From positions 43,023-107,022 of IMG/VR virus record IMGVR_UViG_3300025930_000008: a stretch of 64,000 bases of DNA. One strand, written 5' to 3'. This document shows, piece by piece, positions 686-4,950 of this stretch. Positions within the stretch are counted from its first letter, which is position 1, and every line of letters begins with the position of its first letter. The position numbers and the translations under genes are program-made. The notes under the pieces are model-generated. The model worked only from the letters and a program-made list of their open reading frames with translations. It did not search any database and was not told where the DNA came from. Origin of the DNA: a virus.

Positions 686-740
686 TGATTGGTCATTCCC
701 CTTACCCCTAGGGAATCGTTACTGGATGGGCAACCAATCA
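686..740 (-). ncRNA. candidate small structured RNA
   Basis: Terminal 8-bp inverted repeat TGATTGGT/ACCAATCA plus internal ATTCCC/GGGAAT hairpin; strand assumed from context. Confidence 0.3.
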
Positions 741-747
741 AGTTGTA

Positions 748-827
748 TGGCGGGTGGAGGAATCGAACCTCATTACGCTCTCGCCAGCTAGGTTATGAGC
801 CTTGCTGCCCAAACCTGGGCACCCGCG
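748..827 (-). tRNA. atypical tRNA with CAT anticodon (initiator-like acceptor, mini D arm, long variable region)
   Basis: CGCGGGT G CCCA GGTT TGGG CA GCAAGG CTCATAA CCTAGC ... TGAGG TTCGATT CCTCC ACCCGCC A. Confidence 0.7.
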
Positions 828-841
828 TCGTAAATTTGCTA

Positions 842-927
842 CGGAGAGTGGGGGATTTGAACCCCCGGTACCCACTGGATACTCCGTCTTAGCAGGACGG
901 TGCATTAAGCCACTCTGCCAACTCTCC
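842..927 (-). tRNA. tRNA-Ser(GCT)
   Basis: GGAGAGT acceptor, loop CTGCTAA, long variable arm, G73. Confidence 0.95.
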
Positions 928-1113
928 CTGTGTGATACGTGGCACCCACGTACCCCTTTTAACTAAGGCGAAAAACTCTATCAACGTACACTTAGAACTA
1001 TCCGTCAATCCATCTACACGGCCGTCTGTGTAAGTCCAATAAACTCTTTCCGTCTTAGGATCATAGAGATAATCCTTCACCATTGCGTTCGCTTCCCAAC
1101 GAAAAGAAATCAT
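889..1113 (-). CDS. hypothetical protein (74 aa), stop inside tRNA-Ser
   Basis: ORF fills the Arg-Ser spacer; ATG 1 nt after the tRNA-Arg discriminator. Confidence 0.55.
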   Translation of the reverse strand: MISFRWEANAMVKDYLYDPKTERVYWTYTDGRVDGLTDSSKCTLIEFFALVKRGTWVPRITQGELAEWLNAPSC

Positions 1114-1114
1114 A

Positions 1115-1186
1115 CGGCCCCGGTGAGAATCGAACTCACATCTATCCCTTAGGAGGGGATCGTTCTGTCCATTATACTACAGGGCC
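1115..1186 (-). tRNA. tRNA-Arg(CCT)
   Basis: ATCCC CTCCTAA GGGAT anticodon arm; GTTCGATT T-loop. Confidence 0.93.
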
Positions 1187-1188
1187 AG

Positions 1189-1241
1189 AAGCAGGGCATT
1201 TCAGCCCCACCCACGTCACCGCTTTAGGACAACGGCTGCCT
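1189..1241 (-). ncRNA. candidate D-armless tRNA mimic
   Basis: AGGCA...CCGTT GTCCTAA AGCGG...GGGC TGAAAT GCCC TGCTT. Confidence 0.3.
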
Positions 1242-1242
1242 G

Positions 1243-1446
1243 TCAGATATCCATAGCGCACTGGTTAACGCAATCCCGACAACAATTGCACACCGTATCG
1301 TAATCGCCACCGATTTCCTCTGCATACGGACAGCCATGAGGAATCTCTCCCTCATTACCGCAGTTACAGAGCGGACTGATTGCCGATAACAACCAGTCTT
1401 TGACAACCTGCTTGTAAATATGCATACGTATTTGCACAGCAGGCAT
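1243..1446 (-). CDS. Cys-rich small phage protein (67 aa)
   Basis: C-terminal CNC...HGCPYAEEIGGD...CNCCRDC...CAMDI pattern; the A of ATG is the tRNA-Ile discriminator. Confidence 0.7.
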   Translation of the reverse strand: MPAVQIRMHIYKQVVKDWLLSAISPLCNCGNEGEIPHGCPYAEEIGGDYDTVCNCCRDCVNQCAMDI

Positions 1447-1518
1447 AGGCCAGGATGGATTTGAACCATCGACCCGCACCTTATAAGAGTGCCGCTCTAA
1501 CCCCTGAGCTACTGGCCC
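1446..1518 (-). tRNA. tRNA-Ile(TAT)
   Basis: GGGCCAG acceptor, GCACT CTTATAA GGTGC anticodon arm, A73. Confidence 0.9.
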
Positions 1519-1527
1519 AATTAGTTA

Positions 1528-1706
1528 GAGGATCGTATATGGGGGACTTACTTCATGGATAGGTACGCACTACGCCGGGGCGACCACACCCCTCTCGGCC
1601 AGCACGCATACTCCTAGATGTAGTCAACATCGTTAGTGACCTATATCAATCCGCTTACCCTTATCCCACCTGCGCACTGTGGGCGGCAATTATCCGTCCG
1701 ATCCTC
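1528..1706 (-). ncRNA. candidate ~180-nt multibranched ncRNA
   Basis: 8-bp terminal stem GAGGATCG/CGATCCTC, several internal hairpins, no ORF in the track, begins 1 nt after tRNA-Thr. Confidence 0.5.
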
Positions 1707-1707
1707 A

Positions 1708-1779
1708 AGCCCGCGAGGGGAATCGAACCCCTATCCCTGCTTTACGAAAGCAGTATAATAGCCGTTATACTACGCGGGC
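1708..1779 (-). tRNA. tRNA-Thr(CGT)
   Basis: GCCCGCG acceptor, CTGCT TTCGTAA AGCAG. Confidence 0.93.
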
Positions 1780-1782
1780 GAC

Positions 1783-1875
1783 TTACTTATCAGGCACAAT
1801 CATAGTGCCTTTACAGATGGGACATACCCTACCATTGTTAAGGATGCCCCCTTTCATCTTGCATTTACAATCCAT
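1783..1875 (-). CDS. 30-aa Zn-finger-like microprotein
   Basis: MDCKCKMKGGILNNGRVCPICKGTMIVPDK*, CxC...CxxCxG; ATG 2 nt after the tmRNA discriminator; not in the ORF track. Confidence 0.55.
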   Translation of the reverse strand: MDCKCKMKGGILNNGRVCPICKGTMIVPDK

Positions 1876-1877
1876 AG

Positions 1878-3328: not shown

Positions 3329-3405
3329 GGCGAGGGAACCTGCGTGCTTAATCCCCGTGGGTACGCACGGATTAGGTACTGCGATGGCCCCTGACTGATG
3401 GGCAG

Positions 3406-3477
3406 AGCCGTCACCGGGAATCGAACCCGGCTTACTAACTTACCAAGCTAGGGTAATATCCGATATACTATGACGGC
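3406..3477 (-). tRNA. tRNA-Thr(GGT)
   Basis: GCCGTCA acceptor, CTAGC TTGGTAA GTTAG. Confidence 0.9.
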
Positions 3478-3480
3478 TTA

Positions 3481-3554
3481 TCGGGCATGTAGGATTCGAA
3501 CCTACGACCCCCTGCTCCCAAAGCAGGTGCGCTACCAGACTGCGCTAATGCCCG
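3481..3554 (-). tRNA. tRNA-Pro(TGG)
   Basis: CGGGCAT acceptor, CCTGC TTTGGGA GCAGG. Confidence 0.95.
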
Positions 3555-3719
3555 TTACAAATGACTGAATACATAAGTCACAGCAGAGATACCATGACTA
3601 ATGAAACTCATGATACCGGTGGCAGCAGCCACCTTGAGGTACCACAATTCCTTACGGCTGAGCGTAACCTTTTCCTCAGCCTTCTTTATGGCTTTAAGTT
3701 TCGCTTCTTCCTTGTCCAT
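3555..3719 (-). CDS. small protein with C-terminal hydrophobic segment
   Basis: MDKEEAKLKAIKK...LWYLKVAAATGIMSFISHGISAVTYVF; overlaps the upstream membrane gene. Confidence 0.55.
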   Translation of the reverse strand: MDKEEAKLKAIKKAEEKVTLSRKELWYLKVAAATGIMSFISHGISAVTYVFSHL

Positions 3720-4044
3720 TGAGCGCCTTGCTTTGACGCCGCTTATACCCAAAGATCAAGTAGAGCGCGACATTCCCTGCGATGAATCCCACCGCATTCA
3801 GCGGGATATAGTAGGAAAACCCTGTGTCAAGTCTCTCAACGTTGTTAGTCAACGCTGACGTGGCTAAGAGCAGATACGAAACGGCAATGAGTACAACATG
3901 GAGCGGCAGCAGAGCTACATATCCTCCCTGCTTGCGCAGTTTGAGGTAGCTCTGGGTATATACCACCACAATCAGCACCACAAACGACACAATGCCTCCG
4001 TACAGAAAGATATTCAAGTATCGGAGGCCATCCAAAATGCTCAT
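3694..4044 (-). CDS. membrane protein, 3 predicted TM helices
   Basis: Three hydrophobic stretches and a basic C-tail; holin-like topology. Confidence 0.7.
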   Translation of the reverse strand: MSILDGLRYLNIFLYGGIVSFVVLIVVVYTQSYLKLRKQGGYVALLPLHVVLIAVSYLLLATSALTNNVERLDTGFSYYIPLNAVGFIAGNVALYLIFGYKRRQSKALNGQGRSET

Positions 4045-4058
4045 GCTCTATTACCTAG

Positions 4059-4129
4059 CGGGGGATCGAGGATTTGAACCCCGAAGTTCGGGTTTGGAGG
4101 CCGACAGTTTACCATTAGCTTAATCCCCC
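4059..4129 (-). tRNA. tRNA-Trp(CCA)
   Basis: Loop CTCCAAA, G73; C31:C39 mismatch. Confidence 0.9.
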
Positions 4130-4171
4130 AGGAGCGCACGGAGGGAGCGCGAGATTCTCTCACCCCTCGGT

Positions 4172-4249
4172 TATGTGAACAGACTTGTCATACGCCGACT
4201 TCACGCGGGCGGATTCTAACCATAGACCCTAAGGCGTATAGTTCATATG
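4172..4249 (-). ncRNA. candidate structured RNA with T-loop-like motif
   Basis: ATATGAAC/GTTCACAT and TACGCC/GGCGTA stems enclosing GGTTAGAATCC. Confidence 0.35.
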
Positions 4250-4316
4250 TGACTATACCGCGAAGGGACTCCGTTTCCATCGAATACTCCTGAACGCATG
4301 GTGCCATCTGAAACAA

Positions 4317-4428
4317 TCGTCATTGCCACGCCGCTTTTCGCTACTTGTATACTGCCCTCCGGGGATCAATCCATCCAGACGCATACGTTTGCTCGCTACA
4401 GCCGTGCGCATGTATTGAGCAATGACGA
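4317..4428 (-). ncRNA. candidate ~110-nt ncRNA
   Basis: Perfect 10-bp terminal stem TCGTCATTGC/GCAATGACGA starting 2 nt after tRNA-Leu. Confidence 0.45.
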
Positions 4429-4430
4429 AG

Positions 4431-4512
4431 TACGCCCGGAGGGACTTGAACCCCCACACCTTTCGGCATCAGGACCTAAACCTGACGTGTCTACCGATTC
4501 CACCACGGGCGC
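4431..4512 (-). tRNA. tRNA-Leu(TAG)
   Basis: TCAGG TTTAGGT CCTGA, long variable arm. Confidence 0.94.
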
Positions 4513-4646
4513 TAGTACCGATAACGTTCAAGGAAGGGCTGTTATCGGTGTTATCGTGCGACTGCCATTGGACCATATTCATAGTCGAGAGCCTTGCGCC
4601 GCTGCATGATACCCCGGATTCCCGTCCGGCATATTCATGCCTGATA

Positions 4647-4729
4647 TGCGATCAGTGAGAGTCGAACTCACACGCCTGTTAGGGCACTGACCCCTCAAGC
4701 CAGCGTGTCTACCATTTCACCATGATCGC
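4647..4729 (-). tRNA. tRNA-Leu(GAG)
   Basis: CTGGC TTGAGGG GTCAG, long variable arm. Confidence 0.94.
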
Positions 4730-4743
4730 TAAAGATTTTGAAA

Positions 4744-4825
4744 TGGCGGGAGTAGGATTCGAACCTACGAAGGCATAGCCGTCTGATTTACAGTCAGATG
4801 CGTTTGACCGCTCCGCAACCCCGCC
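4744..4825 (-). tRNA. tRNA-Tyr(GTA)
   Basis: TCTGA CTGTAAA TCAGA, long variable arm. Confidence 0.95.
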
Positions 4826-4834
4826 GAATAAACA

Positions 4835-4950
4835 CTTGGGCACCTAGATTGGGTGCGACCCTTCTCTTTCAAGTCAACTTCCTCCTGCCTAGCCTTATCC
4901 GGGCAGATGGTTCGCCGTATCTACGGCTGATCTAGGAGTTGGCTCCCAAG
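4835..4950 (-). ncRNA. candidate ~115-nt ncRNA: long stem capped by a three-hairpin multiloop
   Basis: CTTGGG/CCCAAG, CCTAGAT/ATCTAGG, GCCGTA/TACGGC, CTGCC/GGCAG. Confidence 0.45.

Follow-up and report, generated by a model that had tools for sequence, protein, structure and literature searches.

Putative structured RNA families between the tRNA genes of an uncultured phage

What occupies the spacers between the transfer RNA (tRNA) genes of a phage, where no protein appears to be encoded? We address this question in a window of 64,000 nucleotides (nt), positions 43,023 to 107,022 of IMG/VR virus record IMGVR_UViG_3300025930_000008, the right-hand part of a 107-kb record from an uncultured phage; the estimated completeness of the record is 67%. 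According to ARAGORN and Rfam, an island at window positions 100-5058, downstream of the ribonucleotide reductase (RNR) gene, contains 18 tRNAs, a tRNA-like gene with a UUA anticodon, and a 451-nt transfer-messenger RNA (tmRNA). Among these genes lie several small open reading frames (ORFs), promoter boxes of the sigma70 type, and eleven stretches without a credible ORF. An earlier reading of this DNA, made from the letters alone (hereafter the sequence-only reading), had described eleven candidate RNAs in the island's spacers, each closed by complementary ends, and had proposed that they are folded, non-tRNA RNAs delimited by tRNA processing sites. Since all of the island's tRNAs and the tmRNA are on the minus strand, the candidates, and the phrase ‘after a tRNA 3' end’, must be read in the minus orientation.

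We predict at least five new families of structured RNA in the spacers between these tRNAs. We refer to their members in the window as modules A, B, C, D and F (Table 1). Our comparison with a second phage demonstrates, at the level of predicted structure, that the modules exist, that the modules and their placement are conserved, and that their helices covary; the excision of the modules, their stability and their protein partner are what we infer. Both the observation of closed elements and the proposal of RNAs delimited by processing sites are upheld in part: at least five of the eleven candidates are conserved folded RNAs by comparison and by placement, and the remaining six (686-740, 1189-1241, 2333-2399, 2419-2452, 2458-2520 and 4172-4249) have no support beyond their fold.

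Comparison with a diverged relative

With the RNR gene as anchor, we scanned IMG/VR and JGI metagenomes and obtained a single diverged relative, L002, as well as a contig that is nearly identical, L083, so that the comparative evidence comes from two diverged lineages only, the window phage and L002. The RNR of L002 is 75% identical in amino acids, its tRNAs stand in the same order, and a tmRNA is present; no alignment between the two phages is possible for the small ORFs or for most of the spacers. Searches with blastn and tblastn against 160 RNR-anchored loci returned no homology in the spacers, but nhmmer detected it. A protein search also listed RNR relatives of 75-84% identity on other assemblies. 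The alignment of L083 with the window (2631-7200) stops beyond position 7200; it is 98% identical over the aligned stretch and 99.7% in the island, with 9 differences in about 2.8 kb of island as against 4.5% of RNR positions, which suggests mosaic recombination at the island border.

Module A starts 1 nt past tRNA-Thr(CGU) and ends 8 nt ahead of tRNA-Ile(UAU). Its homolog in L002 (13749-13931; nhmmer E 1.6e-5) is found 1 nt past tRNA-Leu(UAG), which is not the syntenic position; the syntenic spacer of L002 is just 15 nt long. Judged by this pair of sequences, module A has apparently moved intact to another tRNA context. RNAalifold predicts 44 pairs, all of which form in both phages, 19 of them compensatory (both sides changed) and none broken, for a structure that was predicted from the same two sequences on which it was later scored. 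When the partners are slid by 1-3 columns as a control, there are 0-3 compensatory pairs, and 32-48% of the cells are paired. The closing helix covaries at six of its eight pairs, reading GAGGAUCG/CGAUCCUC in one phage and AGGUCAAG/CUUGACCU in the other, and conserved unpaired blocks flank it.

The G-U pairs of module A would be A-C mismatches on the opposite strand, and so the structure points to an RNA on the tRNA strand. These pairs bear on a rival explanation, according to which the inverted repeats act as DNA, that is, as promoters with operator-like palindromes, as terminators, or as protein-binding sites. Boxes of the form CTTGACA-N16-18-TAnnnT do occur at the 5' edge of module C and inside module D, and the folding z-scores discussed below are similar on both strands for several elements. 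But besides the mismatches in module A, this explanation must account for a strand bias of 7 to 1 among the hexaloop hairpins described below, and for helices whose sequence is free while their pairing is kept and whose spacing varies, unlike a fixed protein-DNA site. We regard it as very improbable.

For the other four modules, MAFFT followed by RNAalifold produced misalignments, and we used independent folds and covariance models built from single sequences instead. Module B starts 1-2 nt past tRNA-Leu(UAG). It is matched by nhmmer at the syntenic site of L002 (13939-14172; E 0.004), where the closing helix of the counterpart (13932-14052) is preserved and one of its pairs has changed from U-A to C-G, a compensatory change; CAAUACAUG and a 16-nt block at the 3' side are conserved as well. 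In L002 the counterparts of modules A and B stand in tandem, in the order tRNA-Leu, 1 nt, A', 5 nt, B'. Module C and the syntenic L002 sequence (12944-13080) have two elements in common, in unchanged order, namely a GCCGU-N4-ACGGC hairpin and a 13-mer, AAGGGUCGCACCC; the L002 copy has a matching closed layout of four hairpins, with unrelated closing helices. Module C ends 9 nt ahead of tRNA-Tyr. The sigma70-type promoter at 4957-4984 is predicted to start transcription at about 4950, which is the 5' end of the module. In L002 a promoter, TTGACG-N17-TATAGT, likewise stands behind tRNA-Arg(UCU), and its predicted start is the first base of the L002 module C. Going by these predicted starts, the 5' end of module C would be the transcription start in both phages.

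Module D lies in the spacer between tRNA-Thr(GGU) and tRNA-Val(UAC) and ends 3 nt ahead of the latter. The syntenic sequence of L002 (14941-15068) has a closing helix of 17 base pairs (bp), a CGGGAA hairpin and a second hairpin, and its folding z-score is -7.0, as compared with -4.1 in the window. Apart from the window copy itself, on which alone model R3 was built, this site is the best match of the model, with 17.5 bits and E 0.066. Module F starts 2 nt behind the UUA-anticodon tRNA, past a ‘UA’ dinucleotide, and the L002 copy likewise begins past ‘UA’ behind a tRNA. The top non-self match of its model (R2) falls where it would be expected in L002, at 15908-16012 (19.7 bits; E 0.0026 in 75 kb with filters off). 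The helix order P1-H1-H2-H3 is the same in both phages, and the loop of the third hairpin is CAGGAA in the window and CUGGAA in L002. Covariation, which had been named as a check on the candidates, is thus seen in the closing helix P1 of module F (4 compensatory pairs, no disruption) as well as in 19 of the 44 pairs of module A.

As a group, the modules are branched, with a long-range closing helix placed directly at the 3' or the 5' end of a tRNA or at a predicted transcription start, and modules A and F keep their spacing behind a tRNA in L002. The L002 counterparts of all five score z between -1.8 and -7.0 against shuffles. The claim that several candidates begin 1-3 nt after a tRNA 3' end holds on the minus strand for A, B and F, at 1-2 nt; the ends of C and D are otherwise placed.

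Each module is single-copy, which rules out repeats of the kind formed by miniature inverted-repeat transposable elements (MITEs). When IMG/VR was scanned for patterns of modules A, B and C, and GTDB genomes for that of A, the L002 contig was the only match; and with a covariance model of module A (R1), neither 1.3 Mb of loci nor five whole viral records gave another copy. A more distant island, L166, which we found by scanning for the tmRNA 5' pattern, has none of the modules or hexaloops. A blastn search of the island against the INPHARED phages gave tRNA matches only, and the nearest cultured phages, at about 31% DnaE identity, are too remote for the host to be identified from relatives.

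Fold closure and fold energy

The sequence-only reading took complementary ends as the mark of its elements. In the minimum-free-energy (MFE) fold of the minus strand, 8 of the 11 candidates are indeed closed at their ends, namely the five modules together with 686-740, 2333-2399 and 2458-2520. Of the remaining three, 1189-1241 and 2419-2452 form plain hairpins without closed ends, and 4172-4249 has closure in its interior only. Against 300 dinucleotide shuffles, the z-scores of all eleven candidates are negative but modest (-0.7 to -4.1), for windows that had been picked for their closed ends. Only 2458-2520 and module D stand out alone, and seven of the eleven scores are weaker than -2.

Whole non-coding spacers involve no choice of boundaries. 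Eleven of them have a mean z of -2.0, compared with -0.52 (standard deviation 1.05, n=70) in random coding windows of the same genome; the spacers of the island are more structured than the genome background. On the other hand, the anchoring of helices at tRNA borders (within 4 nt) does not characterise the island in general: taken together, its 29 spacers have no more such helices than shuffles do (Fisher p 0.33 for 3' trailers and 0.46 for 5' leaders). Individually, three anchored helices are unusual, one of 10 bp in the spacer 4130-4429 after tRNA-Leu(UAG) (p ~0.002), one of 8 bp in 684-747 before tRNA-Lys (p 0.007), and one of 8 bp in 1520-1707 after tRNA-Thr (p 0.02). Judged by folding statistics alone, our finding would be weak.

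The list of candidates might, then, be mostly an artefact of selection, given that complementary ends of 5-10 bp can be found in any spacer of 50% GC if its boundaries may be chosen freely. The anchored helices, the seven weak z-scores and the three candidates that are open in the MFE fold all speak for this explanation, as does the fact that the sites of 686-740, 1189-1241 and module A correspond to spacers of 0-15 nt in L002. It fails, however, for the nhmmer and covariance-model matches at the L002 sites where they would be expected, for the 19 compensatory pairs of module A, and for the recurrent hexaloop. As an account of the whole list we find selection quite improbable; for the six unsupported candidates, and for those only, it is the best reading.

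For these six, the syntenic spacers of L002 are either absent or without detectable conservation. The spacer syntenic with 1189-1241 measures 5 nt, and 686-740 has no equivalent, the Met and Lys tRNAs being directly adjacent in L002. No homolog of 2458-2520 was detected, and L002 has an unrelated long hairpin at the analogous position. In candidate E (4172-4249), only a T-loop-like motif, GGUUAGAAUCC at 4208-4222, is conserved. The motif recurs at the syntenic L002 position 14155, at L002 17460 and 19206, and at a genome position matching window -9733; in both phages it lies outside the annotated tRNAs.

A T-loop-like motif raises the question of whether the elements are decayed or non-canonical tRNA genes, the more so as two odd tRNAs of this island score poorly with the Rfam tRNA model. 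Yet neither ARAGORN nor the Rfam models for tRNA, tRNA-Sec and tmRNA match any of the candidates, even at E<=10, and the covarying structure of module A is not a cloverleaf. We therefore reject degenerate tRNAs as an identification, and consider this explanation scarcely credible.

Three spacers that were not among the candidates also fold well on the minus strand: 2875-3004 (z -4.0), 2736-2802 (z -3.9) and 4513-4646 (z -2.1). The first contains a long hairpin, closed by TTGAC...GUCAA over a promoter, together with a perfect hairpin just before tRNA-Val(GAC).

A recurrent hexaloop hairpin

The candidates had been said to share no obvious primary sequence. This is right overall, with one exception: a hairpin with a C-N-GGAA hexaloop recurs. 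The sense strand of the island has six such hairpins, with stems of 5-9 bp and one per element; away from the island, the same strand has a seventh, and the opposite strand has one weak case, so that seven of eight are on the tRNA strand. Table 1 lists four spacer hairpins with this loop, which stand on different stems and two of which belong to modules D and F. Among the 152 hexaloop hairpins of the island, CGGGAA is the commonest loop, with 4 copies where 0.04 would be expected. The four differences between the window and L083 in the hairpin at 2744-2763 all fall inside its internal loop. The L002 island has three C-N-GGAA hairpins, two of them at sites syntenic with those of the window and all on different stems. 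More distant tRNA islands have no C-N-GGAA hairpins. Since the loop stays fixed while the stems vary, and since G-U pairs are compatible with one strand only, the motif is presumably one at the level of RNA.

The seventh copy belongs to a non-coding unit of about 260 nt (L170:3148-3412, minus strand; genome about 12148-12412), which lies outside the window and away from any tRNA. The unit consists of a promoter (CTTGACA-N17-TAAGCT), a structured body with the hairpin UUGAGGG-CGGGAA-CCCUCAA, and a rho-independent terminator, and we predict it to be a stand-alone small RNA (sRNA) gene.

Read most economically, the C-N-GGAA loops would all be sites at which a single RNA-binding protein, encoded by either host or phage, attaches. 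A protein partner in common is compatible with the hairpin, which does not tell us what that partner would be. The function suggested by the sequence-only reading, namely that the RNAs may act as decoys or sponges for anti-phage RNases, toxins or RNA-binding proteins, is likewise compatible with the repeated hexaloop. The repeats of CsrB and Rsm RNAs are CAGGA(U/A/C)G-like loops. As in the CsrB/RsmZ sponges, GGA here sits in a hairpin loop of 6 nt and is repeated on several RNAs, including a stand-alone sRNA gene; unlike in those sponges, the first loop base is C and not a conserved A, and there is one hairpin per module where the sponges have many per RNA, so that we speak of a resemblance only. 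In the 107-kb record, at its 67% completeness, we found no genes for CsrA, Ro/TROVE, RtcB or reverse transcriptase. That the tRNA by-products and one sRNA titrate a single host RNA-binding protein, such as a CsrA-type reader of GGA loops or an RNA-targeting defence factor, is a speculation that we think unlikely to be correct. If it were true, the tRNA island would double as a protein-sponge array.

In L002 a CGGGAA hairpin also stands 13 nt upstream of the 5' end of the tmRNA. This tmRNA (16214-16764, 551 nt) was overlooked by ARAGORN and scores 36 bits, as compared with the Rfam gathering threshold of 47.

Precedents and proposed role

The coordinates of the modules, the other candidates and further features of the island are collected in Table 1. 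At the L002 site syntenic with the UUA-anticodon gene there is no such gene. Promoter boxes of the form CTTGACA-N16-18-TAnnnT are common on the minus strand throughout the genome. Small ORFs, for example 889-1113, 349-609 and 126-284, start a few nucleotides past a tRNA 3' end and have their stop codon inside the next tRNA; such overlapping ORFs were found on the minus strand at 126-1113 and further upstream, and none is kept in L002. A terminator-like GC hairpin with a U-tract (5063-5090, minus strand) ends 4 nt ahead of the 5' end of tRNA-Arg(UCU), which would therefore need read-through or the promoter-like box at 5249-5276. The tRNA island extends for another 8 kb ahead of the window, and has 37 tRNAs in total.

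Table 1. Positions of the predicted modules, the other candidates and further island features in the window
Feature	Coordinates	Strand	Basis and remarks
Module A, 179-nt branched RNA, 8-bp closing helix	1528-1706	-	nhmmer, RNAalifold
Module B, 112-nt RNA, 10-11-bp closing helix	4317-4428	-	nhmmer; anchored helix p ~0.002
Module C, 116-nt multi-hairpin RNA, closed by 6+7 bp	4835-4950	-	shared blocks; z -2.1 (L002 copy -2.4)
Module D, three-way junction, 12-bp closing helix, CGGGAA hexaloop hairpin (3306-3329), second hairpin	3268-3343	-	
Module F, 129-nt RNA, 11-bp closing helix, CAGGAA hexaloop hairpin (2561-2578)	2534-2662	-	z -1.9
Closed hairpin filling the spacer between the Met-like tRNA and tRNA-Lys	686-740	-	z -0.9; anchored 8-bp helix p 0.007
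Two hairpins between a small-ORF stop codon and tRNA-Arg(CCU), not end-closed	1189-1241	-	z -1.4
Closed hairpin 5 nt upstream of the tmRNA	2333-2399	-	z -2.3; nhmmer: no homolog
Simple 8-bp hairpin, not end-closed	2419-2452	-	z -1.2
Long imperfect hairpin between module F and the tmRNA	2458-2520	-	z -3.6 on both strands
Candidate E	4172-4249	-	z -0.7; ends open in MFE fold; sequence motif GGUUAGAAUCC alone conserved
CGGGAA hexaloop hairpin enclosed by a second helix, 3 nt upstream of the UUA-anticodon tRNA	2744-2763	-	
CGGGAA hexaloop hairpin in spacer 4513-4646, not listed by the sequence-only reading	4614-4629	-	
Sigma70-like promoter (TTGACA, 16 nt, AAAACT), directly past tRNA-Arg(UCU)	4957-4984	-	read from sequence
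UUA-anticodon (ochre-reading) tRNA-like gene	2665-2735	-	ARAGORN tRNA-Stop; weak Rfam match to the tRNA-Sec model, 26.6 bits
CAU-anticodon (Met-like) tRNA, 80 nt, long variable arm, odd D-arm	748-827	-	26.4 bits with the tRNA-Sec model; below tRNA gathering score

The modules do not belong to a family that is already described in Rfam. The suggested search with Infernal matches no Rfam family to any module in either phage, whether tRNA, tmRNA, 6S, YrlA, GOLLD, ROOL, ribozymes or riboswitches. Only the tRNAs and the tmRNA reach gathering scores, and no candidate is matched at E<=5 over positions 1-5600; module A has no match even at E<=10, and the L002 counterparts of the modules have none.

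The closest precedent is found in phage T4, as the sequence-only reading had pointed out: its tRNA cluster yields the unexplained stable non-tRNA RNAs rnaC and rnaD (PMC3014915). These small stable RNAs have been known for some fifty years with no function assigned (PMC3014915), and their roles are still without explanation (PMC3014915, PMC9697503). The modules appear to be much of the same kind. Like rnaC and rnaD (the stable RNAs species 1 and species 2), they are non-tRNA RNAs inside a phage tRNA cluster and on the tRNA strand. In T4 the layout is tRNA-Arg, 1 nt, rnaD, 6 nt, rnaC, so that a 5' end lies directly behind a tRNA 3' end, as it does at 1-2 nt for A, B and F, and the two RNAs stand in tandem, as do A' and B' in L002. 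T4 rnaC has a canonical T-arm-like hairpin (L172:1909-2047), and candidate 4172-4249 a T-loop-like motif. The two cases differ in that there are at least five modules as against two T4 RNAs, that the ends of the modules are more clearly closed, and that several modules share a hexaloop hairpin not present in the T4 RNAs. Homology can be rejected for module A, the only one modelled, whose model R1 scores below 6 bits across the T4 tRNA region.

Other known RNAs offer looser parallels. GOLLD and ROOL are structured RNAs of unknown function that often lie beside tRNAs and in prophages and are possibly co-transcribed with them (PMC5737381); they are single RNAs of 500-800 nt with many junctions and pseudoknots, and the modules measure 76-179 nt. 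The Y RNA-like YrlA RNAs resemble the modules in having a closed stem and, in some phages, a place near tRNAs. The YrlA model nevertheless matches no module, its sole weak match (24.9 bits; gathering score 69) being to an L002 tRNA, and the record has no Ro/TROVE gene. Retron msr-msd RNAs have closing helices as well, but we found no RVT_1 domain in the record.

How might such modules be released? CCA is not encoded in any of the tRNAs, and a protein of the phage that resembles CCA-adding enzymes is found outside the window, in an ORF of at least 1113 amino acids (L171:4-3345, minus strand; genome about 13593-16934). Its residues 478-944 comprise the CCA-adding-enzyme domains (PolyA_pol head, RNA-binding, HD and tRNA_NucTran2_2), preceded by an N-terminal extension of about 470 residues that is unassigned. 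Since no CCA is encoded and such a protein is present, cuts at the discriminator base and by RNase P would free the modules. We propose that the modules are co-transcribed with these CCA-less tRNAs. An endonuclease of the RNase Z/BN type, cutting past the discriminator base of the upstream tRNA, would create the 5' end of a module, and RNase P, cutting at the downstream tRNA, would create its 3' end. The freed module would have a 5' overhang of 1-2 nt, its closing helix would shield the ends from exonucleases, and a discrete small RNA could accumulate. Together, the modules may then have a role in trans, in which they would titrate one protein that binds C-N-GGAA, or recruit it.

Alternatively, the modules could be purely cis-acting, i.e., they could aid the folding or cutting of the neighbouring tRNAs, or provide resistance to exonucleases, and then be degraded. 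Several of our results agree with this: the modules abut tRNA ends, the spacers as a class exceed the background in structure, module D overlaps a promoter, and six of the eleven candidates are unconserved and missing from L002. But an insulator needs generic stability only, and yet modules A, B and C keep their unpaired blocks amid diverged ORFs; module A is intact in a different tRNA context; and the hexaloop hairpin occurs in the predicted stand-alone sRNA gene, away from tRNAs. We consider a purely cis-acting role rather unlikely. We favor instead, as the probable account, although with no great confidence, an island that encodes tRNAs, a tmRNA and small ORFs together with independently folding, conserved RNA modules, at least five in number (A, B, C, D and F), T4-like and acting in trans.

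A number of observations weigh against the account that we favor. The comparison involves only two diverged lineages, L083 being uninformative about covariation because it is near-identical in the island, and the structure of module A was scored on the sequences that had suggested it. The z-scores of modules A (-1.1) and B (-1.7) are unimpressive, border-anchored helices as a class do not exceed shuffles, and the island's small ORFs, with z of about -1.7, likewise fold above the genome background. Module D overlaps a promoter-like sequence, TTGACA-N17-TAGTGT (3300-3328); such a box is present in the module in both phages with its predicted start inside, and so module D would be found only on read-through transcripts. 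Finally, the domains that we sought in the record include no candidate for the partner protein of the modules.

What the modules mean for phage biology depends upon which of these accounts is correct. If they serve only as aids to folding and processing, this would explain why conservation is seen in spacers and not in the neighbouring small ORFs. The island is a richer one than that of T4, with at least five unrelated modules supported by covariation, conserved placement, at least one module that has apparently moved, and a shared loop that could be used as bait. Should the modules be released and share a protein that they bind, then a phage tRNA island would be an operon not for tRNAs alone but also for regulatory or counter-defence RNAs.

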